A DNA stretch of 64,000 bases from Alphaproteobacteria bacterium (GTDB lineage: Bacteria > Pseudomonadota > Alphaproteobacteria > Rs-D84), in the NCBI GenBank assembly GCA_017505705.1, contig JAFVOS010000005.1:29493-93492 (forward strand), read 5' to 3'. Both the position numbers and the translations under genes were made by a program. Below, in pieces: positions 5,883-34,778 of the stretch. The notes under the pieces are model-generated. The model saw only the letters and a program-made list of their open reading frames with translations. It did not search any database and was not told where the DNA came from. How positions within the stretch are numbered: position 1 is the stretch's first letter; each line of letters begins with the position of its first letter.

Positions 5883-6116
5883 GTGGATATCAACAACCCT
5901 GTCTTTGCACCGCGTGCGCACCCATAGTCTGCGACAGGTTAGCACACAAATACAAAAAATCAAGCGGAAATATTATATTACTTTTAATTTTTTGGCGCAA
6001 GGAGATTTTTAAGCATAAAAACATTTTTCTTTTTTACTTTTTTGATTTTGCAAATTTTTTCTTGCACATGCGTGTGTTTTTTGTCTACAATCCATGTAAT
6101 CAAGGGGGAGATTTTA

Positions 6117-6794: not shown

Positions 6795-6826
6795 TAAGCA
6801 TGTAAAAAAAACGGAAGGAAGTTGGT

Positions 6827-8350: not shown

Positions 8351-8365
8351 TGTTGTGCAAAATGG

Positions 8366-11049: not shown

Positions 11050-11391
11050 ATGACACAAACACAAACATTATATTATACAGAAAAATTCCAAAGCGCAGAA
11101 CAACTGTGGTTCTGGTTTTTGTATTCGCAATCTGTCAGAAACGGATTTGTACAAAATGGGGCAAGAGCCGCCAAACGTGCGTGCGAACTGGTTGATGTTG
11201 AAACACTGATTACTAAATTATATCTGTCGGGAAAACTGACCGATGAACAGTTATCTGTGATGAAACAATTTGGCGACAAAAGACGTGCCCCACACCAGTA
11301 TATATGGCGTGAAAATCGTGCAGCTGATCAATGGAGACGCGCAATGCATACACTGGAACATGCCGCTAAACAGCGTGGATGGATTGAATAA
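11050..11391 (+). CDS. hypothetical protein (113 aa)
   Basis: ORF preceded by the RBS AAAGGAG. No family recognised from the sequence. Confidence 0.5.
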   Translation: MTQTQTLYYTEKFQSAEQLWFWFLYSQSVRNGFVQNGARAAKRACELVDVETLITKLYLSGKLTDEQLSVMKQFGDKRRAPHQYIWRENRAADQWRRAMHTLEHAAKQRGWIE

Positions 11392-11411
11392 AATTACAAG
11401 GATTTTAAGTC

Positions 11412-11753
11412 ATGATAATAATCGCATTTTCAAACAAGACATCAAAAAAATTTGCACAATTGGTATGCAGAAAATTTAAACATGTGGCACCAATCATTCC
11501 AGACGGACGCTTTTTGATTATGTATCAATTTGTACGCCCGGGATATGTCGAAAAAATAAAACTGGGCACACGTGATTTAAAAATATTAAAAGCACATGGT
11601 TGGCAATTTATTTATATCAATGGAATTGATGTACCATATGATTTTAATATGCGAACAGCATATTCATGCGTAGATCTGGCCAAACGAACAATAAATATGC
11701 ATAATATATTTGTTCAAACACCACTGGCATTATATAAAAGATTAAAACAATAA
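11412..11753 (+). CDS. hypothetical protein (113 aa)
   Basis: ORF following the previous one and ending at a bidirectional terminator. No family recognised. Confidence 0.45.
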   Translation: MIIIAFSNKTSKKFAQLVCRKFKHVAPIIPDGRFLIMYQFVRPGYVEKIKLGTRDLKILKAHGWQFIYINGIDVPYDFNMRTAYSCVDLAKRTINMHNIFVQTPLALYKRLKQ

Positions 11754-11782
11754 AAAGCCGCCCATATGGGCGGTCTTTTATT
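11752..11782. terminator. bidirectional rho-independent terminator
   Basis: Hairpin GCCGCCCATATGGGCGGT flanked by A-run and T-run. Lies between convergent genes. Confidence 0.75.
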
Positions 11783-14700
11783 TATGCAAACGTGGACGCC
11801 AGTTGCGCAACTTTTCCATCAGGAAGAATAGCGCTGGGGTCAACGTGAATGTAAAGATAAGACTGGCCAACATACCACCAATCATAACCGCACCCATGGC
11901 TACCTTCATACCGTCGCCAGACCATAATTGCGGAACCATCCCGGCCATAACAGCAATAGATGTCATAAGAACCATATTCTTTTTATCCATCAATTCTGTC
12001 CACAGTGCGTTATATGCTTTTTCACCAGATGCAACACGATTAATCGTTGGTTCCAATACCAAAATGTTATTATTTACAACCAATCCAACCAACATAACAA
12101 ACGCCAACATTGCACCAATATTCATTGTCGCACCAGACAAGAACATCAATACGAACACACCTGCAAAACTGGTGATAATAGATGTTGCAATTGTAAATGG
12201 ATGCGCCAAAGAATTCAAAATAGCAGCCAGCAACATAAACGTTAATATCGTAGCCAGCAAGAATGCTGTTCCAATTTCTGATGTGGTGTCACCCTGGATT
12301 TCAGACATACCGCCGAATTCAGCACGATAACCGTCTTCCCAGTCGATTTTATTTAGGCTTGATTGAATCTTGGCCTGGACAGGACCCATTGTCGATTTAC
12401 CAATATTAATATCAACTTCTGTTAAACGGTTTTTAGATTTACGACGTATATCTGGGGTGGCAGCAGTGCTTTCAACACGACCCAATTCAGATAATGGGAC
12501 CATACCCTTTTGTGAATTTACGTATACATTTTCAAACAGCGCAGCTGTTTTAAACGCATCGTCAAATTCCAAAATAATTGGGTATTCTTCGCCACCTTCT
12601 TTGTATTTGTATGTGTCATTTCCAAACAAGGCGGTACGCAATGTTGTTCCAGCATATGAATTTTGAACGCCCCAGAAATTCATTTTTTCTTCGTCAGGGA
12701 CAAATCTGAATTCGTTTGCAGGTATTTGCTGTGCACGAACCGCCGATTGCACTTCGGGTATCTGGTTTACCATATCAATAATCTGGGCGGCATATGCTTC
12801 ACGTTTGGTGTCGTCTGGTCCATACACATTCAGAACCAAGTCAGATGACACACCCGCAGATGAAGATTGCCCTGCACGAATTTGAACCTCTGCATCGGGG
12901 ATATCAGATATTTCTGGCAACATTGCCTGGGCCAGTTCTTTGTCTGATAGGCTGCGTTCTGATGCATCGACTAATTCCACCTTAACCGAGATATTCTGCA
13001 AACCACGTTCGCCGATTTTTACAGACAGTGATTTAACTTCATCAAACTTTTCCAAACGCTGCTCAATCTGGGCGGCAATGGATTCTGATTTCTCGTATGT
13101 GGCACCCATGGGGGCACGTGCAGTGATAGTTATTTCGTCTGCATCAGTCGATGGAGAAAATTCATTACCAACAAATTTCATCAACATCGAAGATCCAAAC
13201 AAAATCGCAATCGCCAATAACAATACTTTGCCAGGATGCTTGTGCTGGAAATCATACCATTTTCGTATACCAGAATTTTCAGATGTGTTTGCTGTTTTCT
13301 TGGGCTGAGATTTCTTGGCCTGTTTATTATCGCCCGTCAGACGCAAGAATTTCGCAATCATCATTGGTGTTAATGTAAACGAGAACAACAACGATAATAC
13401 AGTTAAGTATACAACAGTCATACCAAATTGGTTCATAAACAAACCTGCAATACCACTCATAAACGCCAAGGGCAAGAACACCACAACGTTTGTTCCAACA
13501 CCAGCCAACACAGATACAGCAACTTTTTTGGTACCATCAATTGCGGCATCTTCTGGGGATTTTCCGTTGTGCATTTCTTGCAGTGCAGATTCAATCAAAA
13601 TAATCGCATTTGACACCAGTGTACCCAACGCTGTTGAATACGCCAACAATGTCATCGCATTAACGGTAAAACCGGAACCTTCCATGAAGAAAAAGCCAGC
13701 CAACAATGATGCAGGGATAACAACACCTGCAATGACCGTAGAACGCCAGTTGCGGGTAAATGCCAACAACACCAAAACTGTCAAAATAACACCCAAGACA
13801 ATCGAATTTATGGTGTCATCGGTATCTTCGGAAACGGATGTCGAAGAATCAAATACAATCTGCATTTCGGCATTTGGGAATCTGGATTTTAGGTCTGCTT
13901 GGTATTCAGGCATACGTTTGCGCAATTGTTCTGAAATCTTGATTGCATTACCGTCTGATGCCTTGACCACAGATGCAATAACAACATTTTGACCGTTATA
14001 GCGTGCACCTGTTTCTATTTCACGTGCCGCATCGGTGACAGTCGCAATGTCTGACAGTTTGAAGTTATGACCTTCGACGGTGGTTAAACGCAGATTTTCA
14101 ATTTCTGCAACAGATGCAAATTCACCAACAAATCGGACATTCGATGAATTTGTGCCACTTTCAATCTTTCCACCGGGAACATTCAAATTACGATTCCCCA
14201 AGGCCGCAACAACATCCATAACCGTCACACCACGTGCAGCCATTAAATCTGGATTCATTGCAATACGCACAGCACGTTCGGTGCCACCAAATACAGATAC
14301 AGATGCAACACCAGAAAGACCAGTGATTTTATTTGATAAAATATTATCTACATATTCTTCCAGGTCACGTGAATCTGCACCCTGTAAAACAATATCAACA
14401 ACCGCTTCTTGCAAAGGATTTAATTTTTCAACAACAGGCTGTTCCATATCATCTGGGAATTCTGATAGCAAAGCGTCCAGTTTTGTCTTGATTTCTGAAG
14501 CCTTGTCATTAACGTTTACCCCCAGATGAAATTCCGCCAAGACCATACCGCTGTTTTCATATCCGTATGATGTTAATGATTTTAATTCTGCAACCTCTGA
14601 TATTGCGTCTTCGGCACGCTTTAAAATCTGGGATTCCATTTCAGCAGGTGCCGCACCAGGATAAATAAAAGTAGATGTCACAATTGGGAAATCAATCGCT

Positions 14701-14807
14701 GGTGTGCGTTCAATGTTCATCTTGGGGAATGATACCAACCCCAGTACCACCCAAAACAAAACAAACATTAATGTTGTGACAGGTCTGCGAACAAAAAATT
14801 TTAACAT
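11778..14807 (-). CDS. RND (AcrB/HAE1-family) multidrug efflux permease
   Basis: 1009 aa, 12-TM RND architecture with AcrB-like sequence throughout. Final gene of the marR-oep-mfp-rnd operon. Confidence 0.9.
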   Translation of the reverse strand: MLKFFVRRPVTTLMFVLFWVVLGLVSFPKMNIERTPAIDFPIVTSTFIYPGAAPAEMESQILKRAEDAISEVAELKSLTSYGYENSGMVLAEFHLGVNVNDKASEIKTKLDALLSEFPDDMEQPVVEKLNPLQEAVVDIVLQGADSRDLEEYVDNILSNKITGLSGVASVSVFGGTERAVRIAMNPDLMAARGVTVMDVVAALGNRNLNVPGGKIESGTNSSNVRFVGEFASVAEIENLRLTTVEGHNFKLSDIATVTDAAREIETGARYNGQNVVIASVVKASDGNAIKISEQLRKRMPEYQADLKSRFPNAEMQIVFDSSTSVSEDTDDTINSIVLGVILTVLVLLAFTRNWRSTVIAGVVIPASLLAGFFFMEGSGFTVNAMTLLAYSTALGTLVSNAIILIESALQEMHNGKSPEDAAIDGTKKVAVSVLAGVGTNVVVFLPLAFMSGIAGLFMNQFGMTVVYLTVLSLLFSFTLTPMMIAKFLRLTGDNKQAKKSQPKKTANTSENSGIRKWYDFQHKHPGKVLLLAIAILFGSSMLMKFVGNEFSPSTDADEITITARAPMGATYEKSESIAAQIEQRLEKFDEVKSLSVKIGERGLQNISVKVELVDASERSLSDKELAQAMLPEISDIPDAEVQIRAGQSSSAGVSSDLVLNVYGPDDTKREAYAAQIIDMVNQIPEVQSAVRAQQIPANEFRFVPDEEKMNFWGVQNSYAGTTLRTALFGNDTYKYKEGGEEYPIILEFDDAFKTAALFENVYVNSQKGMVPLSELGRVESTAATPDIRRKSKNRLTEVDINIGKSTMGPVQAKIQSSLNKIDWEDGYRAEFGGMSEIQGDTTSEIGTAFLLATILTFMLLAAILNSLAHPFTIATSIITSFAGVFVLMFLSGATMNIGAMLAFVMLVGLVVNNNILVLEPTINRVASGEKAYNALWTELMDKKNMVLMTSIAVMAGMVPQLWSGDGMKVAMGAVMIGGMLASLIFTFTLTPALFFLMEKLRNWRPRLHK

Positions 14808-14823
14808 ATTACACCCCCGAAAA

Positions 14824-15426
14824 TTATTTTCTTACAACTTTAACTTTTTCACCGGCTTTGACATTGGACAAGATAACTTTGTCGCCATCATTTAGACCAT
14901 CAGTGATGTATGCCATTGTGGCATCTTGATCAGAAACAGTGACAGTGCGTATATCAGCAACACCATTGTCAACAACCATGACAGTACCGTTCTCAATCGC
15001 TGAGACAGGAATAAAGAAACCATGACCAGAAACCTCTGCAAATTGCAGGCCATCTGAAACGCCAGATGTACGTACAACATGCATACCAGTGTCATAGTCT
15101 ATTTTTCTGGATACAGATGTAATCTTACCTTCGCCTATTTTTTGGCCCGCATGTAATTTGCCAACACGTGCACCAGATACCAATGCACGATTATTTTTTA
15201 CAGAAATTGGTTCACGCAATATACCGTCTGTGCGTGTGATTGTTATTACTTCGACTGGGGCCCCCTGGTCGGCAGCCACACGTGCGGCATTGAATACATG
15301 ACGTGAATTTTCAGACGCAACCGCCGCAAAGCGAAATACAACCCACCCCGCCAAAACTGCAATCAACAGGATTGTAAAAAACTGTTTCATTTTTTTTGAT
15401 TTTAAATTTTCTGCTATTTTTTCCAT
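14824..15426 (-). CDS. efflux periplasmic adaptor (membrane fusion protein), short form
   Basis: 200 aa with an N-terminal TM anchor and beta-barrel/lipoyl-like regions of the HlyD/AcrA family. Located between the OMP and the RND pump. Unusually short, apparently lacking the coiled-coil hairpin. Confidence 0.65.
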   Translation of the reverse strand: MEKIAENLKSKKMKQFFTILLIAVLAGWVVFRFAAVASENSRHVFNAARVAADQGAPVEVITITRTDGILREPISVKNNRALVSGARVGKLHAGQKIGEGKITSVSRKIDYDTGMHVVRTSGVSDGLQFAEVSGHGFFIPVSAIENGTVMVVDNGVADIRTVTVSDQDATMAYITDGLNDGDKVILSNVKAGEKVKVVRK

Positions 15427-15428
15427 TT

Positions 15429-16754
15429 TTATTCACCTAATTTTTTTACAGATTGTTCAGACATTAAAATATTATATTTCATATTCAACAATGCCATATC
15501 CAATTGATACAGCCCAGCTGCAACATCTGCCAATTCAACAGCAGATGTTTGACCTGCGCCAAAACGATCCTGGGAAAACTGGTACGCTTTGGCCGCTAAA
15601 TCACGTGCTTGTTTTAACTTAGCCAGATTGCCACGCAAATGATTGTATTGTTTTAATGCGTTATCATACTGTTCAGAAGTTAATTTTTTTGCTTTTTCCA
15701 AATCTTGACGAGCGGATTCGGCGTTCATTGCTTCGATTGTAGCGTTGGCACGATTTAAACCACCACTGAAGATTGGAACCTGTAATGCCAAACCAACATT
15801 TACAGATTGTGACCCAGAACGATCAAACATAGAGTCAAATTCATTGCCAATGGCGTTAAAACTGTAGCTGCCAGTGGCGGCCAATGTCGGCAACGAATCA
15901 GCACGTTTAGATCGGGCCAAACGTTCATACATTTCGACCTGTTCAGACAAAATATCCCACTGGGGCGTATTTTCCAGTTTTTGTGACGCAGTTAACTCGC
16001 CGAATGTTGAAGGGAATGAATCTGTCAAAACCAATGGTTCTTCAAGGTCAATGCCTGCCATAATTTTTAACATGCGATGCGCAGTATCACGATTAAATTT
16101 CGCATCGGACAAATTAATTTCTTTGGACGCAATATCAGATTCAATTTTAACCAAATTGCTGCGATTGGCACGACCAGCGGCGGTCAAGCGTTTGCGTGCA
16201 GCACGTGCATTATTCAAATCAGATTCTGACAATTTTACAATTTCATCTGTCATTTTTGCCGTCCAATATAAATTTGCAGCGGCATATTCCACTTCGCGGC
16301 GGGTAAGTTCATATGATGCATCCGCCATCTTTATCGCAGATTTTACAGATTTTACAGCATTGCCAATTTTTCCAAATGTATAAATCGGCTGGGTAATATT
16401 AACACTGGCTGTCAACATATTATCTGGCATTTCAAAAGCAAAACCATCTTTGAATCTTTCGTCTATTTCGCCCAATAAATCACCAGAAATTTCAATCATG
16501 CGTGGTTTTGATGGATTTTCAATATTTACCATATTTGTATATGCGGCTGTACCGTCTATTTTAAACCAGCGATTAGCGTTAACTGCGTCCAGGGACGCTT
16601 CTGCTTTCTGAACATTTGCAGATGCTTTTTTCAGATCATGAGACTGTTCTGTTATTTTTGATACCGCATCAGACAATGATAAATCAATTGCATATGTTGG
16701 CGCAGTCGACAAACAAATTAACGCCATTAAAGATACCATTCGTATTTTATGCAT
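15429..16754 (-). CDS. TolC-family outer membrane efflux protein
   Basis: 441 aa with a signal peptide and two-repeat TolC/OEP organisation. Sits in the efflux operon. Confidence 0.8.
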   Translation of the reverse strand: MHKIRMVSLMALICLSTAPTYAIDLSLSDAVSKITEQSHDLKKASANVQKAEASLDAVNANRWFKIDGTAAYTNMVNIENPSKPRMIEISGDLLGEIDERFKDGFAFEMPDNMLTASVNITQPIYTFGKIGNAVKSVKSAIKMADASYELTRREVEYAAANLYWTAKMTDEIVKLSESDLNNARAARKRLTAAGRANRSNLVKIESDIASKEINLSDAKFNRDTAHRMLKIMAGIDLEEPLVLTDSFPSTFGELTASQKLENTPQWDILSEQVEMYERLARSKRADSLPTLAATGSYSFNAIGNEFDSMFDRSGSQSVNVGLALQVPIFSGGLNRANATIEAMNAESARQDLEKAKKLTSEQYDNALKQYNHLRGNLAKLKQARDLAAKAYQFSQDRFGAGQTSAVELADVAAGLYQLDMALLNMKYNILMSEQSVKKLGE

Positions 16755-16755
16755 G

Positions 16756-17199
16756 TTAGTGTTGCTCCATCTTTGATAAAATTTTATTCATAGTTCTTAA
16801 GGCAGATGTTAATTCTGCTTCATCTTCCTTGGACAATTCTGAAAACATCTTTTCGACACCATTACGAAATGTTTCCAGTGCCCCAGATGCTAACTCTGCG
16901 CCACGATCCGTCACAGAATACCACGTATTGCGACGATCATGTTCGTCAACGACACGCAGGACAAGCCCATCAGCCTCAAGCTTTCTAAAAACAGCACACA
17001 AATTCGGGGCAGATACAAATTCACGACGTGCAATATCTTTTAATAGTGCACGACCGCCCTGGTGCAGGCGCACTAAAATAGACATCTGTTGACGTGGGAA
17101 CCCAGATAATTGTGCATGATCAATACGCAGTTTATCTGCATATTTATCCAACATCCAGATATTAGATTCCATAAGACGAACAAATTCCTTGCGTGCCAT
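16756..17199 (-). CDS. MarR-family transcriptional regulator
   Basis: 147 aa with a winged-helix MarR signature (…ILVRLHQGGRALLKDIARREFVSAPNLCAVFRKLEADGLVLRV…DRRN…). First gene of the efflux operon. Confidence 0.85.
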   Translation of the reverse strand: MARKEFVRLMESNIWMLDKYADKLRIDHAQLSGFPRQQMSILVRLHQGGRALLKDIARREFVSAPNLCAVFRKLEADGLVLRVVDEHDRRNTWYSVTDRGAELASGALETFRNGVEKMFSELSKEDEAELTSALRTMNKILSKMEQH

Positions 17200-17318
17200 T
17201 TTATTTTCCTTTATAATGGTTTGGATTTGTGATTTATTAAAAATCTTAATTATTATATGTTTTAACGAATGTTTTTCAAGTACTTTTTTTCAAAAAGTTT
17301 ATTTTTTTATACAAATTA

Positions 17319-17346
17319 TTGACAAATTATGCTTTTGTGCTATATT
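17319..17346 (+). promoter_or_regulatory. sigma70-like promoter (TTGACA-16 nt-TATATT) for the downstream HD-domain gene
   Basis: -35 TTGACA at 17319-17324 and -10 TATATT at 17341-17346, with a 16-nt spacer. The ATG at 17356 follows closely, giving a short leader. Confidence 0.55.
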
Positions 17347-17355
17347 TATATCACT

Positions 17356-18741
17356 ATGACACGCTTTATACTGACAGACGAGATTTTTTATCATGGTACC
17401 CGGGCAAAATTTAATCAATTTAGGCCCCTGTCCCACTTTGGCACCGCCGAAGCGGCAGATACTATACTGGATTCGATTCCAACTGTAAAAAAAGAAAAAC
17501 TCAATGGTATGGACGATTTAAAAAGTACATCTCAACCAACAGCACCGTTGTCAGAAATAGGCGACAGAAAAATTATTCCGGTACGACTGAATCTGCACAA
17601 CACGTATGAAATGCAAGACATTGCCGCATGTCATGATTTGGATACATACAAATCATTTACCGCATATCATATTGCACACGATTTAAAACTGGGGTTTATC
17701 CCACACTTTTTTGACTATATTTTTAACGAACCATTCGAATTGAGTCATGAAGAAATTACCAAGGAACTGGCGTCTGACAACCTGTATGCACCTGCGTCCA
17801 GCAGAGAAAACAGATACCATCTGGCGTTCCAACGAATGATTCAATATTTTGAATCTATTGGATATGACGGATTTCATTATGTAAATCAATATGAAGACCC
17901 AGGCCATATATCATATATCGTATTTCGTCCTGAAAATGTAATTAGACAGGATATGCAGAGCACAGAAACACGCACCCCCGGCACCAGAACATATAAGCCA
18001 GCAGAAATATTGCCTGCACATGATATGTCGCACAATCACAAACGTGCACTGATGTTGGAAGAATCACACCACAATCAACTGTTTACACAAAAAATTAATC
18101 GACACAAAAATCAAACCGACCCAGAACACGCCGCAAAAACAAAAGTATATTACACGAAAGTATTCTATCAGGATATTTTGCCCAAAATAAAAAAGATATC
18201 TAAACAGCCTGAATTTGGATATCATGGTTTAACACACACCGAACAAACTGTTTTATATGGACTGGATTTAGCGATAACATGTGCGTACGACCCGATGCCA
18301 GTGATGTTGGCATGTGCACTGCACGACATACGTCGCACAAACAGTGCACAATCCGATGACCATGCACGCAAGGCCGTACCTTTTGCCCGCAAGTTTTTAT
18401 ATGAAAACTATCCTATGCTTCCATGCGCAACAGTCGAAGAAATTATAAATGCAATTAAAAATCATTCCGATGGTAAAATCGCCAAGGATTTAACAGCGGC
18501 ATGTATGTGGGATGCAGATCGTATACGTTTATCGTGGGATGGTATATATCGACCAGAATATTTTACAACCCTGACAGGTCAATATATAGCCGACCTGCCC
18601 CCACTGGCCAAAGAGGCATATATAAAACGCCAAAATAACATGCTGATTGAAAACAATATCAAGACCCCAGAACAAATTGCGTACGAACAAACAATGAACA
18701 AATTGGCCATTCAGCGTGAATTTGACATAAAATATCGATAA
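17356..18741 (+). CDS. fusion protein: N-terminal domain with a YHGT (diphtheria-toxin/PARP-like ADP-ribosyltransferase-like) motif plus a C-terminal HD-domain phosphohydrolase
   Basis: The C-terminal part carries the HD motif pattern H…H…HD…D (GYHGLTHTEQTV…ACALHDIRR…WDADRI). The N-terminal part begins TRFILTDEIFYHGTRAKFNQF…HFGTAEAA, reminiscent of H-Y-E clade ART catalytic starts. The ORF-track start at 17329 lies inside the promoter, so the start was moved to ATG 17356. Confidence 0.55.
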   Translation: MTRFILTDEIFYHGTRAKFNQFRPLSHFGTAEAADTILDSIPTVKKEKLNGMDDLKSTSQPTAPLSEIGDRKIIPVRLNLHNTYEMQDIAACHDLDTYKSFTAYHIAHDLKLGFIPHFFDYIFNEPFELSHEEITKELASDNLYAPASSRENRYHLAFQRMIQYFESIGYDGFHYVNQYEDPGHISYIVFRPENVIRQDMQSTETRTPGTRTYKPAEILPAHDMSHNHKRALMLEESHHNQLFTQKINRHKNQTDPEHAAKTKVYYTKVFYQDILPKIKKISKQPEFGYHGLTHTEQTVLYGLDLAITCAYDPMPVMLACALHDIRRTNSAQSDDHARKAVPFARKFLYENYPMLPCATVEEIINAIKNHSDGKIAKDLTAACMWDADRIRLSWDGIYRPEYFTTLTGQYIADLPPLAKEAYIKRQNNMLIENNIKTPEQIAYEQTMNKLAIQREFDIKYR

Positions 18742-18796
18742 ACCTAATTTTATTTCTTGCAAAAAACGCAAAGATAGATATAATTCATGTCGCAAT

Positions 18797-18870
18797 TGGG
18801 GTGTCGTCTAATGGTAGGACAAGAGATTTTGGTTCTCTTTATCATGGTTCGAATCCGTGCGCCCCAACCA
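18797..18870 (+). tRNA. trnQ: tRNA-Gln (anticodon TTG)
   Basis: TGGGGTGTCGTCTAATGGTAGGACAAGAGATTTTGGTTCTCTTTATCATGGTTCGAATCCGTGCGCCCCAACCA. Anticodon stem AGAGA/TCTCT with loop TTTTGGT. T-arm CATGG-TTCGAAT-CCGTG. CCA encoded. Followed by a terminator. Confidence 0.85.
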
Positions 18871-18877
18871 ATATTCA

Positions 18878-19286: not shown

Positions 19287-19973
19287 ATGGATGCTATCAA
19301 AAATATAAAAAAAGCATTTTTAAATTTGAAAAATAAAAATCGTTTTTTTGTGTCAGAGGCGGACTTTCAACATTCTTTTGCAATGGAGTTAGAAAAAATT
19401 TTTAATGGTACCGCAACCATTTTACTCGAGTTTCCAATAGAGCAAAATGGTCGTATAATTTATACTGATATTATGCTGGTTTATAAACAATATCTATACC
19501 CAATTGAACTGAAATATAAGACCAAAATTATTCCGTCAGAACAATTATACGGATTTACTAGTTTGCCAATAAAAAAGATATTAAAAAACCACAATGCCGT
19601 AGATATAAACGGCTATAATTTTTGGAAAGATATAAATCGCATAGAACAACTAGTAGAAAACAATCAAGTTGTTTCTGGGGTATGCATTATGATAACTAAC
19701 GATAAGTTTTATTGGACTGGGAATTGGAAAAATAATTCAAAGGGTTATCCTTTTAGAACTGTGCAAGGGAAATACCTTTATGGCAATTTAAAATGGCAAC
19801 ATAACGATTTAAACCATATTCCGAAATGGATTAAACAACATCCTGGTTTTGAAATAAAAAATGATTATGAATTCCTGTGGTGTAACTTTTGCGACACCGG
19901 TGATAAAAACGGTTTGTTCAAATCGTTGTTTATAGAAATCCCACAAAAAACGGATAGTAAACATGTCAAATGA
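19287..19973 (+). CDS. PD-(D/E)xK nuclease-like protein (islet gene 1 of 3)
   Basis: 228 aa with RBS AGGAGCAGG. Motif arrangement E (…SEADFQHSFAMELEKI…), then D (RIIYTDIMLV), then 12 residues to ExK (PIELKYK). This is the canonical restriction-endonuclease-fold catalytic pattern. Confidence 0.55.
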   Translation: MDAIKNIKKAFLNLKNKNRFFVSEADFQHSFAMELEKIFNGTATILLEFPIEQNGRIIYTDIMLVYKQYLYPIELKYKTKIIPSEQLYGFTSLPIKKILKNHNAVDINGYNFWKDINRIEQLVENNQVVSGVCIMITNDKFYWTGNWKNNSKGYPFRTVQGKYLYGNLKWQHNDLNHIPKWIKQHPGFEIKNDYEFLWCNFCDTGDKNGLFKSLFIEIPQKTDSKHVK

Positions 19974-20496
19974 TTATAAAGTATCACGAATTGGCAATGA
20001 AAAATCGCCTAAACTTGTAATTTTGTTATGTAATCCTGGTGGCAACCCAAAGTATTACAAACGCTTGGCAGAATACCCTATGGATAAGGATGGTTTTTAT
20101 AAACCAACTGGGATGAATTTACATATTTATCGTGAATATTGTGAATGGTGGGACAATATTTTGAAAAAGACGGATAAATTCGGGATAAAAGATACTGATA
20201 TTTTAGCGTTGGAATATTATCCATATCACACCAAACGCTCGAACGACAGCAAACATTGGAATTGGGATGATTTTGCACAAAAATCATTATCAAAAAATAA
20301 AGAATTATTATTAAAGCACATTGCCAATGGTGTTCCGGTATTTGGATATTACTATGGTTTTTGGTTAAATGATAAAGATGTTGGCGAACAATTATCAAAA
20401 TTAAATAAAAAACAATTTTGCAAAAGTTGTAATGGACTAGGGCAATCGTTAAAATTAAAAGATTTAGAAACCTGGCTGCAAACAATAACAGATTAA
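19963..20496 (+). CDS. hypothetical protein (islet gene 2 of 3), possible UDG-superfamily-like fold
   Basis: 177 aa. Its start overlaps the gene-1 stop by 11 nt, suggesting translational coupling. Motifs LLCNPGGN and EYYPYHTKRS loosely resemble motif A (G-x-N-P-G) and motif B of uracil-DNA-glycosylase-like enzymes. The match is weak. Confidence 0.4.
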   Translation: MSNDYKVSRIGNEKSPKLVILLCNPGGNPKYYKRLAEYPMDKDGFYKPTGMNLHIYREYCEWWDNILKKTDKFGIKDTDILALEYYPYHTKRSNDSKHWNWDDFAQKSLSKNKELLLKHIANGVPVFGYYYGFWLNDKDVGEQLSKLNKKQFCKSCNGLGQSLKLKDLETWLQTITD

Positions 20497-20498
20497 AA

Positions 20499-21137
20499 AT
20501 GCAAAAGACGAAAAAATCTTTATCAACATATATAATGGATGAAAATCATTTCAAAGATTTTGAATATGAATTTGATTACTGTATTATTCGCAAAGAAAAG
20601 GATTTTGATTATTTAGGTGGGACATTAACAAGTGCTTTGGCTGAATTTATAACTTTTAATGATAATGAAAGTTTAGCATATTTTCTTGCTCTGTTATTAC
20701 AATCAAAAATATTGCTTCCAATTTATATTTGCCCGCCAGGTAAAAATGATGAATATATTATAAAATTACCAGATTGTGAAAATGACAGTTATTTATATAT
20801 GAAAGATTCTAATATTATTCCACAAATAAAAACAGCCGATAATATCAGGTTTTTTAACGCGTTTTTATCTGTTCGTGAAATACATACAGTTGCATATAAT
20901 CATATGTTTTTATATATAGATTTTGAAACGGTATATAAATGGATAAAAAAACATCGCACAGAAATCGATACAATCGCATTTGATCCATTTGCAAAATATG
21001 ACTATGCTTGGTATATCAATGTCGATGACTTTATAAAACAAATTGAATTATTTAAAAAATTTATAAAAAATTATAAAGGCAAAAATATTATTTCAGATTT
21101 ACACACAATATCACTGCAAAAACACATGCGCAAATAG
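20499..21137 (+). CDS. hypothetical protein (islet gene 3 of 3)
   Basis: 212 aa, beginning 2 nt after the gene-2 stop. Acidic and aromatic-rich. No family recognised. Confidence 0.4.
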   Translation: MQKTKKSLSTYIMDENHFKDFEYEFDYCIIRKEKDFDYLGGTLTSALAEFITFNDNESLAYFLALLLQSKILLPIYICPPGKNDEYIIKLPDCENDSYLYMKDSNIIPQIKTADNIRFFNAFLSVREIHTVAYNHMFLYIDFETVYKWIKKHRTEIDTIAFDPFAKYDYAWYINVDDFIKQIELFKKFIKNYKGKNIISDLHTISLQKHMRK

Positions 21138-21322: not shown

Positions 21323-21338
21323 GTGCGCCCCAACCAAT
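21323..21338 (+). repeat. attR-like direct repeat of the tRNA-Gln 3' end (GTGCGCCCCAACCAAT)
   Basis: Exact 16-mer match to 18857-18872. Confidence 0.6.
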
Positions 21339-21517
21339 GAATTTTTGTTAGAAATCCGGCGCTTTTGTCGGATTTTTTAATGTTTTTTCCTTTACAACAA
21401 CTGATTTATTGAAAAATCTGGAGCCGAAAAGACGTCAAACAAAATTATTGAAATAATTTACGATTTGTGATATAATAACAAGTATGTCAGCGGACGTATA
21501 TGTCGGCTGTTTTTATT

Positions 21518-21546
21518 TGCTCTCGCTTTTTGCGAGAGCTTTTTTT
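21518..21546 (+). terminator. rho-independent terminator-like hairpin immediately upstream of the tail-fibre-like gene
   Basis: GCTCTCGC-ttttt-GCGAGAGC followed by TTTTTTT. It lies inside the ORF-track version of the downstream gene, which is why that start was moved. Confidence 0.6.
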
Positions 21547-21567
21547 GTTATAACAAAAGGAGTTTTA

Positions 21568-23034
21568 ATGCAGAAAGTATCATATATGGGAAACGGTTTA
21601 ACAACCGAATTTACTTTTAATTTTCCCTATTTTGAAAATACAAATATCGTTGTCACTAAAAATGGTACAACAGCAACTGGATACAGCATCGTCGGAACAT
21701 CTGCTGGTTCAAATGCAGATATTCCATATACTGGTGGCAAAGTGGTATTTGAAATTGCGCCAACCAGTTTGGACAATATAACTATCGCACGCAGTTTGCC
21801 CTTGGTGCGTGTTGTAGACTATCAACCAACCGCTAAAATAACACCAATGCTTTTGAATCAAGACGCCAATTATCTGATGGAAGTATTGAAAGATATGCAA
21901 GATAAAATGGACACATTTTATGCAAAATACGAAGATATTGTAAACAAAGACGATATTCAAAATGTGTTATCCAAAATTTCGTATATCAGCCAGCAGCTAA
22001 GCAACGACAATATTATGATGAAGGATGATTTTTATTCACATATCACAAATTGTTTAACCCAAATTCCACAAAACATACACTTTGAATTAAACGATGGCAC
22101 ATTAACATTAAAAGCAGGTTCAAAAATATATGTCCCAAATGGCGTCGGAATATTTGATACAGTTACGATTGCAAATGATATCACCGCAACAAGAACAGAT
22201 AGTCAAAAATGTATGGTGTGGTATAGCCGTTATGAAAACATCATCAGAGTGTTTCCAATAAGCTTATTCTACTCTGGTGATACCGAACCTTCGCAATACT
22301 CATACATGTTCTGGTATGATACATTTAATAATAAATGTAAGATTACAAATAATAGTGGGACAACTTGGGGAGAAGGAATGTCTTTCCCATTGGCTCTTGT
22401 GTCCACAGACGGAACACAAATTTCAGCAATAGACCAAGTGTTTAACGGTTTTGGCTATATAGCACAAACTTTGTTTGTTCTACCCGGGGTTAAGGGATTA
22501 ATTCCAAATGGTAGAAATACTGATGGCACACTAAAAAGCACTTCTTTTTGTGTAGACTCAGTATTAACAACGCTCTTAACCACCGCAACGGCAAATAGCC
22601 CGCTGCTTTTAAAGTCGAATGCTGTTCAAGTTCTAGATTGCTCTTATAACGAAGCAACCAATTATAATTCAAATCCAGCCTATGCGATTGTTGGGGCAGT
22701 TACAACATCTTCCTCCCTAATAACATCTCTTAGACCTAAAGTGAATTTTCAGCTTCTTGACAGGAACGACAAGTTGACAACTATGCCAGATTATACAGCA
22801 GGCGTAAGCGTTTCAACTGGATATGTCACCGAATATCCCTGTTTTGTTCATGTTCGCCCAATTTGGAATGGAAATGTCTCTGATTTAACATCCCCATTTT
22901 CACAATCATTGGCTAAGAACACTTATGATAATTCGACTAAATTTGAAAATTCAGTATGTTTTATCTGTGATATTGGTGAAACAATCAGTTTCACAAATGC
23001 TACTTGTTATGTCTATCCATTAAAAGGAGTTTAA
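21568..23034 (+). CDS. phage tail-fibre-like / receptor-binding-like protein
   Basis: 488 aa from ATG 21568 with RBS AAAGGAG. The N-terminus MQKVSYMGNGLTTEFTFNFPYFENTNIVVTKNG resembles conserved N-terminal domains of phage tail fibre proteins. The rest is Ser/Thr/Asn-rich and beta-rich. It is followed by a small coupled gene. Confidence 0.4.
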   Translation: MQKVSYMGNGLTTEFTFNFPYFENTNIVVTKNGTTATGYSIVGTSAGSNADIPYTGGKVVFEIAPTSLDNITIARSLPLVRVVDYQPTAKITPMLLNQDANYLMEVLKDMQDKMDTFYAKYEDIVNKDDIQNVLSKISYISQQLSNDNIMMKDDFYSHITNCLTQIPQNIHFELNDGTLTLKAGSKIYVPNGVGIFDTVTIANDITATRTDSQKCMVWYSRYENIIRVFPISLFYSGDTEPSQYSYMFWYDTFNNKCKITNNSGTTWGEGMSFPLALVSTDGTQISAIDQVFNGFGYIAQTLFVLPGVKGLIPNGRNTDGTLKSTSFCVDSVLTTLLTTATANSPLLLKSNAVQVLDCSYNEATNYNSNPAYAIVGAVTTSSSLITSLRPKVNFQLLDRNDKLTTMPDYTAGVSVSTGYVTEYPCFVHVRPIWNGNVSDLTSPFSQSLAKNTYDNSTKFENSVCFICDIGETISFTNATCYVYPLKGV

Positions 23035-23035
23035 T

Positions 23036-23341
23036 ATGAAAAAATACGCAAGAATAGTTAACGAAGAAACGAAAGAGTGTTCTGTTGGTTTGGGTAAAAA
23101 CGTCAATTTTTATAAATCTGTTGGGTTGCAAGAAATGGACGTGGAATTGTCTTATGACGGCAGATGGTATGTTTTGGGGTTTGCCCCTGAAAAACCCGAG
23201 TCCACTTATGCAGAAAAACGTTTAAACCAATATCCACACATTGCTGATCAACTAGATATGATTTATTGGGATAAGATGAACGGAACAAATTTATGGCAAG
23301 AAAAAATTAGCGAAATTAAAAGTAAATATCCTAAAAATTAA
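23036..23341 (+). CDS. small protein coupled to the tail-fibre-like gene (possible tail fibre assembly chaperone)
   Basis: 101 aa. Starts 1 nt after the upstream stop. Ends at a bidirectional terminator. Confidence 0.35.
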   Translation: MKKYARIVNEETKECSVGLGKNVNFYKSVGLQEMDVELSYDGRWYVLGFAPEKPESTYAEKRLNQYPHIADQLDMIYWDKMNGTNLWQEKISEIKSKYPKN

Positions 23342-23398: not shown

Positions 23399-24589
23399 TC
23401 AAAGTTTAACATACGACTTCTTTTTGGTATAAAACTTCAACAACCATTTTACAAAATAGTCAGCAACAAGAGAGGCTAACAGACAAATTGCGATACTGAC
23501 GAATAAAACATTCAAATCTCCTTTTAAAAATGGTTTTTGCCATATATACTCATTCATAACAGCAATCATTGGGAAATGCATCAAATAAATTGGATATGAT
23601 AAATCACCTAGCCAAGCACTAAATTTATTATTTAGAAATCTGGAAAAGAAGCCTTCTTCAAACAAGAACGAGACAAAAATAATAATAAACAATATTTCCC
23701 AGAAAATAAATTCGCCAGCAGGTTTATGAAAAGACATATGATATACAAAAAAGAATAACGCTGCTATTTCAAACAAACCAAAAAGAAATTTCTTTTTCTT
23801 TGATACAATTCGTTTTGTTTCAAGTTTACGTTTTAAAAAAGCCCCTATCAATATTCCCAAACTTATTCCAGCTAATCCTTCTATCATACCATTAATCATA
23901 AATGGCATAGAAGCAATTGGTGCGGCCTTATAAAGAGTAGTTGAACCAGTGCCACGCACGATAAAACCGAACAAGGCAATAATTCCACAGACAAAAGCTA
24001 CTTTTTCCCACCTAAAATGACGTAGCGCATAGAAAAAGAATAAAGAGAGAACAAACAGCACACAAACATACCACGATGCAGCATTTTGAGACGTTTCTTG
24101 CATTAATCCCGCAGCATTCGTAACAAAAAACAGATTTAATGTATCAGGATATACCCTATAGGTGCCAATCAGAATATAAGGGATATATGAAAAAGCGAGT
24201 ATTGGCCACAGACGCAAAATACGTCGTTTGGCAAAAGCTTCTAAATCGTATTTCTTGAATCCTTCGCTATGATACAGAAAAAAGCCACTCATTATAAAAA
24301 AACTGAATACAATGAGCAATCCTGAATAACTGCTCATAACTTGCAATGAAGAAAATAGAGTCGACTCTTTATATTTGATCGTCAAAAAGGCCAAAAGATG
24401 TCCATACATAATCATAAGTGCAAACAGAAAACGTATAAAATCTATTTGATAAAAACGTTTTTTATGTTCTACACTCTGCGTATCATCACACGCTGTAGTA
24501 TCTGTTGATGCAGATGTGCTAATACCTGTGCCTGCGCACTCGTTTACATGTGCGGGGGGACAACATGTTGTTATTACTGTTTTTTTCAT
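23399..24589 (-). CDS. acyltransferase family 3 (OafA/OatA-like) integral membrane O-acyltransferase
   Basis: 396 aa, polytopic, with the motif RFYQIDFIRFLFALMIMYGH typical of the Acyl_transf_3 N-terminal region. Precedes the polysaccharide cluster. Confidence 0.7.
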   Translation of the reverse strand: MKKTVITTCCPPAHVNECAGTGISTSASTDTTACDDTQSVEHKKRFYQIDFIRFLFALMIMYGHLLAFLTIKYKESTLFSSLQVMSSYSGLLIVFSFFIMSGFFLYHSEGFKKYDLEAFAKRRILRLWPILAFSYIPYILIGTYRVYPDTLNLFFVTNAAGLMQETSQNAASWYVCVLFVLSLFFFYALRHFRWEKVAFVCGIIALFGFIVRGTGSTTLYKAAPIASMPFMINGMIEGLAGISLGILIGAFLKRKLETKRIVSKKKKFLFGLFEIAALFFFVYHMSFHKPAGEFIFWEILFIIIFVSFLFEEGFFSRFLNNKFSAWLGDLSYPIYLMHFPMIAVMNEYIWQKPFLKGDLNVLFVSIAICLLASLVADYFVKWLLKFYTKKKSYVKL

Positions 24590-24599
24590 GTTTTTCTCC

Positions 24600-25646
24600 T
24601 TATATTGCTTTAATTTTTACGGATTTGAACCCAATACCTAATTTTCTTGTATCATTACCAGCGTTTAAATCTTGGGGTGATACTGGATTTTTTATTATAA
24701 AATGCAACTTCAAAGAAATTCCTTTGATATTGCCTGCTGGAATATGTAATACCGTTTCTGGTTTTTCTTTACCAAAATCAAAATGCCAAGTTGCAATTTT
24801 TTTATCATTTAATAAAACATCAACATCTTGGGTTGGCCATTGTTCAGCAAGATATCCCTCAACATTGAAATCAACAACGACATCAGTATTAAAAGATAGT
24901 GGTAATTCTATAAAGACATCGTTTCCATTGCTCCACCGACCCCAGCCCTCTTTGACGGACAAGCCATAATTTTTGATATTATCGGTTGCAAAGTTATATT
25001 CTACTTCGCCATTGATAAATTCAGAAAAGATGCGTTTAAGAACCGCCCTATTTCCTAAATTGCCAGGCAAATCGTGATATAGCATAAGATAGATATGATC
25101 GTTAATTTTGAACCGACTAACGTCTGCCTGTTCACAATCAGCGCTATCTTGTACCAATAAAAAATCAATATCTTTATTTATAAATCGTGTTGTTAACAAA
25201 GACAAAGCCTGTTTTAATTCGTCTATTGATAAAAAATGCTTAATTCTTGTCACAAACACAAATAATATACGATCCCCAGTTTCAATATTTTCTATTAATC
25301 TTTTTGCACGTCTGGTTTGTTTTTCATAAAAAGAATCGTATTGCTTTTCAACACTTTCACCCCATTCAAAATCATGAAAATAATGCACGCCTGTCTTCGT
25401 ATTAATTACTCCACGATGCTCTTTATTTTCAGACCAGGTTTCTTTTAAATCTTGTAATTCAAACGCACCAGCAAAATCATTACAAATCATTTTTATTTTA
25501 CCAATAAAACCGCAATTGCCACATATATCTGTTTCTGCACCATTCCAATCAAACGGATAGCTTGCTTTACGAATGTCGCAATCACGCAAAGCCCCTGCTG
25601 TTGCACAAAATTCACCAAGCGGAATAACGACATCATATTTTTTCAT
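24600..25646 (-). CDS. DUF1796-like (putative papain-like cysteine peptidase fold) protein with a C-terminal beta-rich domain
   Basis: N-terminus MKKYDVVIPLGEFCATAGALRDCDIRKASYPFDW matches the DUF1796 signature (SLG..C…SYPFDW). Confidence 0.5.
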   Translation of the reverse strand: MKKYDVVIPLGEFCATAGALRDCDIRKASYPFDWNGAETDICGNCGFIGKIKMICNDFAGAFELQDLKETWSENKEHRGVINTKTGVHYFHDFEWGESVEKQYDSFYEKQTRRAKRLIENIETGDRILFVFVTRIKHFLSIDELKQALSLLTTRFINKDIDFLLVQDSADCEQADVSRFKINDHIYLMLYHDLPGNLGNRAVLKRIFSEFINGEVEYNFATDNIKNYGLSVKEGWGRWSNGNDVFIELPLSFNTDVVVDFNVEGYLAEQWPTQDVDVLLNDKKIATWHFDFGKEKPETVLHIPAGNIKGISLKLHFIIKNPVSPQDLNAGNDTRKLGIGFKSVKIKAI

Positions 25647-25672
25647 TTTTTCCCCTATGATTCATATATACA

Positions 25673-26755
25673 CTATTCTTTTGTCTTTTCAATCGCATTT
25701 GCCAACGCATCTAATTTTTTCCAAAATTGATGGTTTGAATCTATAATATCATCAGTATAAACAAAAATTATTCTTTTGGCCGATAAAATATTCTGTATAT
25801 CTGTGTCATTTAATGGGTTGTTCCCATAATGAACAACCATTCCATTATCTGAAAAGCCAGAATTACACAACATATAATTATATTCGTTTGAATAAGAATC
25901 GCCAATTACAATTGTTTTGTCGTGCCATCTGTGCGTTGCTAACATAATCGGCTTATAAAAGCTTTTATCATTACGTTTTGTAAAAAACAAATTTTGTAAA
26001 TTTGTTAAATCTTGCTCTGCAAAATACGGTTTTGGCGAGCTTTCAACACCCAGCCATTTAACGGGTGCCCATTTAAAATATTTTGCAGATTCTTGGAGTG
26101 TCTTGCCTGCACCATAATAATTCCAATGTATTCCACCGATTGGGAATGGCTGATATTCACCTTCTTCACGCAGTTTTTCCATCAAAGGCTGACTGTTATA
26201 TACTGGGATGCCCAAATCCTTGATACCAGATGCCAATTGTTCATGAACAGGACATTTGCCCAGGAAATATTTATAGCGCATTGGCAAATAATCATAATAA
26301 GTCAACGCCTTGCTGGGGGCTAAAACAAAATATATTTTTATTCCATGCCTTTGAGCATAATTCTGTAATTTTTCTAATTTTTCAAAATTGGGGGTTGGCA
26401 AACAATTTTTTGATACAGACTTAAACAAATATTTACCAAATAGATATCTGTGTTTACCTTCTATTATATTATCAAAATAACCTTTGTGTATAAGGCCAAA
26501 ATTAGCCCAATCATAAATTTGATTTTTTGATTTTAACATAAACTTTCGAAATGCAAAATGTGAATTCCACCATCTTTCAAATTCTGGCTGAAACTTACGT
26601 TCTGCAAAAGATTTATCTTGTATACTTGGTAATTCACTGACTGATTCAGAACCGTATATAATCGAAGTATCTTTGACTCCAACCATATATGTCATTGGCA
26701 AAAACAATAAACAAAACAGGGCTAAAACAAAAAATTTTTTATATCCGTTTGCCAT
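25673..26755 (-). CDS. AlgJ/AlgX/DHHW-like partner of MBOAT (polysaccharide O-acetylation accessory protein)
   Basis: 360 aa with an N-terminal membrane anchor. Located immediately downstream of the MBOAT gene, as in AlgI-AlgJ and DltB-DltD pairs. Contains an HRWHD segment. Confidence 0.5.
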   Translation of the reverse strand: MANGYKKFFVLALFCLLFLPMTYMVGVKDTSIIYGSESVSELPSIQDKSFAERKFQPEFERWWNSHFAFRKFMLKSKNQIYDWANFGLIHKGYFDNIIEGKHRYLFGKYLFKSVSKNCLPTPNFEKLEKLQNYAQRHGIKIYFVLAPSKALTYYDYLPMRYKYFLGKCPVHEQLASGIKDLGIPVYNSQPLMEKLREEGEYQPFPIGGIHWNYYGAGKTLQESAKYFKWAPVKWLGVESSPKPYFAEQDLTNLQNLFFTKRNDKSFYKPIMLATHRWHDKTIVIGDSYSNEYNYMLCNSGFSDNGMVVHYGNNPLNDTDIQNILSAKRIIFVYTDDIIDSNHQFWKKLDALANAIEKTKE

Positions 26756-26771
26756 CCTTTAACTCCCCATA

Positions 26772-28205: not shown

Positions 28206-28223
28206 TTTTCCTATATCTTGTTA

Positions 28224-29132: not shown

Positions 29133-29134
29133 TT

Positions 29135-31618: not shown

Positions 31619-31619
31619 A

Positions 31620-32678: not shown

Positions 32679-32697
32679 GTTTTTTTTTCCTTTTTTT

Positions 32698-34769: not shown

Positions 34770-34778
34770 AGCATTACC

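Follow-up and report, generated by a model that had tools for sequence, protein, structure and literature searches.

The window analyzed here is a stretch of 64,000 nucleotides from an alphaproteobacterium of the order Rs-D84 (GenBank assembly GCA_017505705.1, contig JAFVOS010000005.1, positions 29,493 to 93,492 of the forward strand). On its + strand, at 17329..18741, lies an open reading frame (ORF) of 470 amino acids counted from the first ATG. The product, which we call ART-HD, joins an N-terminal domain of the ART-PolyVal type (ART, ADP-ribosyltransferase) to a C-terminal domain of the HD phosphohydrolase superfamily, and we hold both domain assignments with high confidence. The coordinates of the gene, its parts and its nearest neighbors are collected in Table 1.

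The ATG at 17356 is likely the start used, giving a protein of 461 residues that begins MTRFILTDEIFYHGT: the equivalent methionine opens all 50-odd homologues, and the ATG at 17329 falls inside the promoter spacer. The upstream ATG, and with it the 470-residue version, is probably not used. An identical sequence is present in the database as MBR2011895.1, a 461-residue hypothetical protein from a gut "Alphaproteobacteria bacterium" metagenome-assembled genome (MAG). Against two diverged strains the ratio of nonsynonymous to synonymous substitution rates (dN/dS) is 0.10 and 0.08, and is alike in the ART, linker and HD parts; constraint of this order in both halves identifies a genuine coding gene, as opposed to an ORF that arose by chance.

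Judged from its sequence, the gene is monocistronic with a strong predicted promoter of its own. The promoter matches the consensus at 11 of 12 positions, carries the extended -10 TG in addition, and is the top-scoring site in the 2.3-kb region scanned. Because only 9 nt separate the -10 hexamer from the ATG at 17356, and a Shine-Dalgarno sequence is absent, the mRNA would be leaderless or nearly so. An earlier reading of this DNA, made from the sequence alone (hereafter the sequence-only reading), had described just such a near-consensus sigma-70 promoter with a 16-nt spacer and almost no leader. TTGACA and a -10 element at the same distance recur in six further loci (L001, L002, L004, L012, L014 and L016); in other lineages the leader is longer and includes a GGGG/GGAG box.

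Table 1. Features of the ART-HD locus (window coordinates; residues numbered from the ATG at 17356).
Feature	Position	Strand	Basis or details
Divergent marR	16756-17199; promoter 17279-17252	-	First gene of the marR-OEP-MFP-AcrB efflux operon (11778-17199)
Sigma-70-type promoter	17319..17346	+	-35 TTGACA 17319-17324; 16-nt spacer; extended -10 TGcTATATT (TG 17338-17339, hexamer 17341-17346)
ART-HD coding sequence	17356..18741	+	461 aa plus stop; homologue starts, dN/dS 0.08-0.10, AlphaFold pLDDT 90.5, pTM 0.90
ART-PolyVal-like domain, residues 1-200	17356..17955	+	Sequence profiles, BLASTP, fold searches
Motifs in ART-like domain	17392-17394 (H13)		FYHGT (contains H13); PLSHFGT (residues 24-30); IIPVRLNLHNTYEMQD (residues 73-88)
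Motif in ART-like domain	17866-17868 (D171)		QR..E..GYDGFHYVNQYEDPGHISYIVFRPE
Linker, residues 201-285	17956..18210	+	AlphaFold: low-confidence loop ~200-220, then two long helices (226-247, 256-281) bridging to HD
HD phosphohydrolase domain, residues 286-440	18211..18675	+	PF01966, profile and fold matches, ligand table
C-terminal tail, residues 441-461	18676..18738	+	Length varies across the family; basic on average
tRNA-Gln(UUG)	18797-18870	+	Own promoter-like site 18757-18784; conserved downstream neighbor of the ART-HD gene

The N-terminal assignment draws on several comparisons. The Pfam family ART-PolyVal (PF18760) is matched at E ≤ 0.01 by 35 of 59 homologues, at best with E 2.8e-10. 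Residues 1-215 of 24 family members (alignment A3) were made into a profile, and a search of 1.84 billion representative proteins with it retrieved 1588 at E ≤ 1e-3, of which 383 reached E ≤ 1e-10; proteins of 1.7-4.8 thousand residues were among those retrieved. Giant polyvalent proteins were returned at E 1e-20 to 1e-42, and one of them, P0101 (1756 aa; E 4e-42), carries by Pfam an ART-PolyVal domain (2.8e-24) together with LPD38. Among phages, tblastn matched gp225 of Tunturiibacter phage Tunturi_5, a protein of 1262 aa in which Pfam recognizes a Nuc_deoxyribosyltransferase-like and an ART-PolyVal domain (4.6e-32); pairwise BLASTP between the window N-domain and the latter gives E 3e-11. 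PHROGs places residues 10-201 within a 1664-position phage family profile. Against PDB sequences the N-domain profile found chance-level matches only. The gp225 gene (L029 2362-6150) lies directly upstream of a portal gene, and its record bears the label MutT/NUDIX hydrolase; Pfam finds no NUDIX domain in it at E ≤ 0.01.

Predicted structure points the same way. An AlphaFold model of the N-domain alone has a pLDDT of 86.8, and its top Foldseek match in the PDB is an ejection protein of cyanophage A4 (9K3A_B, E 8e-5). The PDB matches that follow, each with a weak E-value, are nearly all of the ART fold: AcrIF11 (6KYF), RES toxins, NatT, tankyrases/PARPs and ParT. Among predicted viral structures (BFVD) there are 34 matches at E ≤ 1e-3, many of them labeled "ART-PolyVal-like" or "PolyVal ADP-ribosyltransferase"; an N4-like virion RNA polymerase is also among them. 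On the basis of sequence and model, we conclude that the N-terminal module is a divergent ART-PolyVal-type domain, predicted to act as an NAD+-dependent ADP-ribosyltransferase. The sequence-only reading had, with a question mark, placed the region by its YHGT motif with the H-Y-E clade of ARTs and with the ART domains of polyvalent phage and conjugative-element proteins. Pfam family matches, profile, BLASTP and fold all agree with it, an ART fold being found both in the model and among its PDB and BFVD neighbors, and the motifs it had quoted are all in place (FYHGT at residues 11-15, SHFGTAEAA at 26-34, and the HD pattern).

The active site of ART-PolyVal domains is described as a histidine in strand 1, a tyrosine in strand 2 and an aspartate in strand 5 (Iyer et al. 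2017, PMC5512222). H13 lies in a strand (residues 10-15); 52 of 53 two-domain members have it, as do 111 of 121 distant domains that were aligned. D171 comes directly ahead of the strand at 172-176 and is shared by 50 of the 53 members and by 112 of 115 aligned distant domains, and E180 and D181 show conservation as well. Assigned by position only, D171 in GYDG is most likely the acidic catalytic residue. The strand that follows the histidine strand has the invariant S-H-F-G of canonical ART-PolyVal domains. At the site of their N-P-L-[RE] motif the family has one of its own, N-T-Y-E (Y84, E85), and Y84, to judge by the alignment, might stand in for the canonical tyrosine. A Y-x10-Y motif, which the sequence-only reading had suggested looking for as a second ART motif, is absent. 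Inside the domain, at about residues 95-167, is a helical insert of ~70 residues.

The C-terminal half has all the ligands of an HD site: H294, H323-D324 (18322-18327), H336, H370 and D386 (DADR). It scores 29.3 bits against Pfam HD (PF01966), above the 22-bit cutoff, and 44 of 59 family members match the HD profile; the metal-binding pattern that the sequence-only reading had called unambiguous is there in full. In profile comparisons with the PDB the best matches are 2PQ7 (6e-10) and E. coli YedJ (3GW7, 1.7e-6), with YqeK-type proteins far behind; Foldseek likewise returns 2pq7 and YedJ, and also PgpH and PDE4/5/6 at weak E-values. NCBIfam matches are far below threshold, to PRK10119 (the YedJ family, 22 bits against 286) and PRK12705.1-4 ('hypothetical protein', 15 against 579). 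Neither Pfam nor NCBIfam gave a match to HD-GYP or RelA/SpoT, and with YedJ and 2PQ7 as PDB neighbors we ruled out that the domain is a housekeeping HD-GYP protein or (p)ppGpp hydrolase, an outcome that the sequence-only reading had named, together with the lack of an ART fold in the N-terminal domain, as fatal to its proposal. Sequence and fold comparison accordingly make the C-terminal module a YedJ/2PQ7-like HD phosphohydrolase, predicted to be metal-dependent. No substrate can be transferred to it, because these nearest relatives are themselves uncharacterized.

The full-length AlphaFold model (pLDDT 90.5, pTM 0.90) packs the two modules confidently via the two-helix linker. The second linker helix is kept in HD-only relatives, which span 94-100% of residues 265-461. 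In the C-terminal tail mean pLDDT is 96 over residues 441-450, 73 over 451-460 and 35 at residue 461, confidence falling over the last ten or so residues only, and the mean net charge of the last 25 residues is +2.3, against about 0 for the whole protein. A signal peptide is absent from the 461-residue protein. From its sequence the protein would be made in the cytoplasm, and both modules look catalytically competent.

A survey of 185,579 species genomes recovered 28 loci. All come from MAGs of gut origin, assigned to Candidatus Enterousia or to unnamed Alphaproteobacteria, with Lactobacillales as the label of one record. Genomes of the order Rs-D84 measure about 0.75-1.0 Mb and are without respiration and standard transporters; the clade is inferred to consist of obligate symbionts or parasites (PMC12306168). 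The ART-HD gene adjoins marR-OEP-MFP-AcrB in 14 loci, most of which place it between tRNA-Glu(CUC) and tRNA-Gln(UUG), while in the sub-clade of the window the gene is inverted, and hence divergent from marR and followed by tRNA-Gln. The sequence-only reading had correctly set it between an efflux operon and a tRNA-Gln islet; the operon lies upstream and divergent and the tRNA gene downstream. At least 14 species have this syntenic chromosomal locus, and neither phage nor conjugation genes are attached to it. Between the gene and tRNA-Gln lie 0-8 kb of variable cargo with nothing common between species.

The lasting link to the efflux operon, kept in 14 loci, raises the possibility of an Arr-like enzyme, that is, an ART that modifies a xenobiotic or antibiotic and works with the MarR-regulated RND (resistance-nodulation-division) pump while the HD domain trims the adduct. 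Arr is an ART of the H-Y-D type that acts on a small molecule, and an intergenic region of 156 bp is shared with divergent marR in the window, in L001, L002 and L004, and in HD-only loci. In most lineages, however, the gene is not divergent from marR; a tRNA-Gln of opposite orientation and 0-8 kb of variable DNA come between the two. Furthermore, an inverted repeat, GTTAAAA-N17-TTTTAAC (~17236-17266), spans the -10 region of the marR promoter and is conserved in seven loci, HD-only loci included. It is probably the MarR autoregulatory operator; it lies ~50 bp from the ART-HD -35 and does not overlap the ART-HD promoter. Neither Pfam nor fold searches produced a match to Arr, and synteny in small genomes is weak functional evidence. 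We regard an Arr-like role as improbable. Co-regulation of the gene by MarR was considered separately and rejected, the operator-like repeat lying over the marR promoter only and the divergent arrangement being confined to one sub-clade.

No neighboring ORF is conserved across the family in any orientation, the neighbors being tRNA genes, marR or variable cargo, and hence none qualifies as a candidate for an immunity or partner gene; conservation confined to sub-clades is seen for a PQ-loop protein, an alpha/beta hydrolase, a GT8 protein and a histidine phosphatase. This bears on the notion that ART-HD is the toxin of a toxin-antitoxin or polymorphic-toxin system. RES, NatT and ParT toxins do figure among its fold neighbors, but those matches are weak (E > 0.1) beside the strong ones to ART-PolyVal, no small gene is conserved next to it in any orientation, and it is without N-terminal trafficking or repeat domains. 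A toxin role is very improbable, and the examined loci yielded no conserved neighbor ORF to fill the part of the adjacent immunity gene that the sequence-only reading had envisaged.

Single-gene defense against phages or plasmids, in which the protein, upon infection, would modify components of the invader or the host by ADP-ribosylation or would drain NAD+ or nucleotides, also deserves consideration. ART and HD domains both recur in defense systems; the gene adjoins a variable tRNA-Gln integration site, evolves fast and shows raised local diversity (below). Yet PADLOC gave no match for ART-HD or for the five downstream ORFs, which leaves the sequence-only proposal of a nucleotide-signal-degrading defense component without a counterpart among known families. 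There is, moreover, no sensor or regulatory domain and there are no partner genes, the locus is vertically inherited and not island-borne, and the near-consensus promoter, with no regulatory site found nearby, suggests expression without special induction. We consider defense quite improbable.

ART-HD diverges much faster than the genes beside it. Compared with L001, the four efflux-operon proteins are 79-90% identical and the ART-HD protein 56%; compared with L002 the values are 78-93% and 52%; and for more distant loci flanking proteins retain 58-76% identity against 42-44% for ART-HD. Between L041 and the window the synonymous divergence (dS) of ART-HD is 0.13, about threefold that of the flanking efflux genes (0.03-0.05), although the counts are small; the sequences suggest locally higher diversity, recombination or an older allele.

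The contrast with the neighboring genes bears in turn on an internal housekeeping or stress role in NAD+, nucleotide or RNA-end metabolism, for example Tpt1-like removal of a 2'-phosphate followed by a cyclic-phosphodiesterase step of the HD domain, or turnover of NAD+ or ADP-ribose. Such a role would accord with a core-genome position kept in genomes of less than 1 Mb, with strong purifying selection, with the tRNA-Glu and tRNA-Gln genes that flank the gene in most loci, and with the loose relationship of the HD family to HD domains of the YqeK and CCA-enzyme types. Against it, the N-domain belongs to the conflict-associated ART-PolyVal family and not to Tpt1/KptA, the protein evolves much faster than its neighbors, the ART half is dispensable in a large clade, and adjacency to tRNA genes is better accounted for by their being hot spots of integration. 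We therefore think a housekeeping role rather unlikely.

The ART and HD halves also occur apart. H13, H27 and D171 are intact in 50 of 53 two-domain members and the full set of HD ligands in about 46 of 53, and the defects never coincide: ART motifs are degraded and HD is intact in P0042, P0048 and P0049, while HD ligands are lost and ART is intact in P0004, P0006, P0050, P0051, P0053 and P0054. A profile of the HD half matches 170 proteins at E ≤ 1e-5; the 120 of these that were listed are all stand-alone HD proteins of 164-249 aa, 36-50% identical and from the same kind of MAGs. Both solo HD contigs examined (P0290 and P0226) show the gene at the same locus, divergent from marR-OEP-MFP-AcrB, and L022 is a further HD-only case beside the marR-efflux genes. 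In a rough neighbor-joining tree, which carries no support values, most solo HD proteins form one clade nested among ART-HD lineages, which suggests that the ART half was lost and argues against late fusion. ART-only relatives of about 330 aa also exist (P0057-P0059). In P0056 a GT1/GT4 glycosyltransferase is joined to the same HD clade, providing another nucleotide-sugar-using partner for the HD module. In P0055 (L030 8001-9731) and P0344 the HD domain is N-terminal and is followed by a region of ~400 aa with the ART-like motifs YH[GA]TPD.IA.F ... [YF]F[AT]P and DG..NY.V.N..AI; Pfam, the family hidden Markov model and hhalign give no support to an ART identity for this region, of which there is one homologue only. 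Genes for ankyrin-repeat, NUDIX, PHP and Fic proteins are among the neighbors.

These data speak to the possibility of sequential chemistry resembling that of SidE, in which the ART would ADP-ribosylate a target and the HD domain would then cleave the pyrophosphate or phosphodiester of the attached ADP-ribose, with the result that a phosphoribosyl or ribosyl mark is left, the mark is transferred, or free ADP-ribose is recycled. SidE proteins, with their mono-ADP-ribosyltransferase (mART) and phosphodiesterase (PDE) domains, and the mycobacterial processing of ADP-ribosylated to ribosylated rifampicin are precedents. The covalent fusion with its confident, fixed domain arrangement (pTM 0.90) is what such chemistry would lead one to expect, as is an HD half that is phosphodiesterase-like at the level of fold (PgpH, PDE4/5/6) and whose clade, in P0055 and P0344, is fused ahead of a region with ART-like motifs, opposite to the order in ART-HD. 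For P0055, however, an ART-like identity is without statistical support, HD-only proteins are common and, where examined, occupy the ART-HD locus, and the existence of members with a dead HD and an intact ART, and of the reverse, implies that neither half needs the other. Since each half has been lost independently, and since the HD half persists alone at the locus, we infer that the ART and HD activities are autonomous and not obligatorily sequential. The autonomy of the halves weighs against an obligatory ART-then-HD sequence, and the two could still cooperate where both are present; overall we judge sequential chemistry unlikely.

The explanation that we tentatively favor is that ART-HD is a conflict or interaction factor, which acts on a partner, host or competitor cell or on an invading element. 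Its ART head would ADP-ribosylate a macromolecule and its HD head would hydrolyze a phosphoester of a nucleotide-type substrate, the target sitting in a partner, host or competitor cell or in the invading element, and delivery would plausibly be through the organism's VirB-type type IV secretion system (T4SS). Two unrelated enzymes would share one chain for co-deployment, making the protein a miniature, domesticated "polyvalent" protein; polyvalent proteins, delivered in virions or by T4SSs, link unrelated enzymes for this purpose (Iyer et al. 2017, PMC5512222). We prefer a conflict or interaction role because the ART is of mobile-element ancestry, divergence is rapid and there is no immunity gene; because the tail is basic with a low-confidence end, and virB8, virB9/CagX and virB10/TrbI of a T4SS (window 6042-10747) lie 6.6 kb upstream of the gene; and because ankyrin and Fic proteins stand beside a relative and the lifestyle of the clade is partner-dependent. 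A role as T4SS effector is, on this analysis, possible.

Several observations weigh against the conflict or interaction role. In other species the T4SS cluster is not adjacent to the ART-HD gene. A dispensable, internal role in metabolism or stress would likewise be compatible with the conserved core-genome position, the strong purifying selection and the wholesale loss of the ART half across a large clade, and the pTM of 0.90 suggests a rigid two-domain unit, possibly with cooperating sites. The window protein alone matches PF18760 at E 0.025 (15.8 bits, below the 31.2-bit cutoff), and membership of that family is therefore carried by the evidence from the family and not by the window sequence alone. 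The canonical tyrosine (PVYL) is not conserved: the residue is R77 in the window protein and K, Q, H, R or N in 52 of 53 family members, and for this reason catalysis could differ, for example as an NADase or with another nucleotide donor. To our knowledge, no ART-PolyVal domain has a biochemically demonstrated transfer of ADP-ribose or a demonstrated target.

A further-reaching reading would make ART-HD an independently evolved counterpart of SidE in logic, secreted through the VirB-type T4SS, its H-type ART marking a macromolecule of the partner cell and its HD domain producing a phosphoribosyl or ribosyl adduct. We think this improbable; were it true, it would amount to a new route to a non-canonical, hard-to-reverse modification and to the first chemistry assigned to the ART-PolyVal and YedJ-type HD families.

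Other features of the window are recorded here. The virB genes are followed by two paralogous-looking ORFs of 113 aa (11050-11753) with no family match. A 16-nt perfect direct repeat of the tRNA-Gln 3' end (GTGCGCCCCAACCAAT), at 18857-18872 and 21323-21338, brackets an islet of ~2.5 kb. The islet has three ORFs (19287-21137) and no integrase; none of the ORFs has a Pfam, PADLOC or PHROG match above threshold, the third having a sub-threshold match to the Pfam SseB N-terminal domain (E 0.0017, 19 bits against a 21-bit cutoff). Contigs of the same species have the islet and related species lack it; the ART-HD gene is not part of it. Just past the islet, 21484-23341 looks from its sequence like a prophage remnant: the N-terminus of a 516-aa ORF matches phage tail, tail-fibre and tail-spike families (PHROG E 8e-15), and a 101-aa ORF after it matches phage families of unknown function. 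On the - strand, 23399-35888 holds a long surface-polysaccharide operon with genes for an acyltransferase-3, DUF1796/DUF7024, an AlgX-like SGNH protein, an MBOAT protein, an epimerase, an 826-aa double GT1/GT4 protein, a GDP-mannose dehydratase, a cytidylyltransferase, a mannose-6-P isomerase cupin, a GT1 and a Stealth CR1/CR2 protein. Two ORFs at 36276-40255 (311 and 1021 aa) have no Pfam match; their homologues lie ~1.3-5.9 kb downstream of ART-HD in L014 and ~1.2-2.1 kb upstream of it in L012. Paralogous ART-HD or ART copies occur a few kb apart in L009 (7971-9341 and 10001-11446) and L028 (2728-3411 and 4163-4972). The upstream copy of L009, 456 aa long, is without a Pfam match, and a histidine-phosphatase gene stands between the two L009 copies.

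A limited literature search found no published description of an ART-PolyVal plus HD architecture, which accords with the sequence-only view that an ART-like and HD fusion is not a characterized family. The sequences that were checked bear no functional name, being unnamed, 'hypothetical protein' or given generic HD labels such as 'HD domain-containing protein', 'HD superfamily phosphohydrolase YqeK' and 'putative nucleotidyltransferase with HDIG domain'. Both domain families are already catalogued, and the HD half is an ordinary member of its superfamily from an unstudied branch; what is new is their combination and its settled chromosomal home, and no new principle is involved. ART-PolyVal is nonetheless among the commonest domains predicted to modify the host in the polyvalent proteins of phages and plasmids. 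Biochemically it is a blank, as is the YedJ-type HD family, and ART-HD is a compact entry to both. A soluble-looking protein of 461 residues with a confident model and natural single-domain variants is easier to study than giants of several thousand residues. Kept in genomes of less than 1 Mb, the gene may inform how uncultured gut symbionts or parasites manipulate their partners. Should ART-HD turn out to be no more than a nucleotide hydrolase to which the ART is an accessory, it still shows a weapon domain of mobile elements domesticated at a core locus of the chromosome.

The known systems nearest to ART-HD each resemble one part of it. The H...HD...H...H...D pattern of the HD half is that of E. 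coli YedJ (3GW7) and of the Thermotogales HD hydrolase 2PQ7, its best matches in both sequence and fold at about 20% identity; both are uncharacterized and neither has an ART fusion. AcrIF11 (6KYF), the second-best solved-structure neighbor of the N-domain (E 0.023, TM about 0.3-0.4, 9% identity), is a small H-type ART that mobile elements use against a host macromolecule, and it has no HD partner. DarTG, ParST and RES-Xre pair their toxins with a cognate antitoxin, and none is adjacent to ART-HD in the examined loci.

An analogy may also be drawn with the SidE proteins of Legionella, a T4SS bacterium, in which one polypeptide likewise carries an ADP-ribosyltransferase and a helical domain of phosphodiesterase type. 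SidE differs in that its mART is of the R-S-E type, its PDE is metal-independent and the order is PDE then mART. No profile or PDB sequence match connects SidE proteins to ART-HD, whose ART is H-type, and the natural single-domain variants argue against obligatory coupling of the SidE kind.

There is a likeness, too, to ART-PolyVal itself. Gp28 of cyanophage A4 (9K3A chain B), a virion-packaged multidomain protein, represents the classic setting of this domain. The paper describing 9K3A assigns to gp28 a lytic transglycosylase and an M23 peptidase only and leaves the alpha+beta domain unnamed; the equivalence of that domain with the N-domain of ART-HD is for this reason structural only. With ART-PolyVal (PF18760) the ART-HD family has in common the motifs [YF]H[GA]T, PL[ST]HFG[TS], I.PV.L..N....D and QR..E..GYDG[FI].Y.N..ED.G..S[YW]..F.P, as well as the predicted fold, the histidine in strand 1 and the aspartate in GYDG. 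It differs by its helical insert of ~70 residues, by K, Q, H or R at the tyrosine site, by the N-T-Y-E motif and by its HD fusion partner. Its setting differs as well: ART-PolyVal is a domain of virion- or T4SS-delivered multidomain giants of 1-5 thousand residues, encoded by phages or conjugative elements, whereas ART-HD is a stand-alone product of 461 residues, encoded at a stable chromosomal locus.

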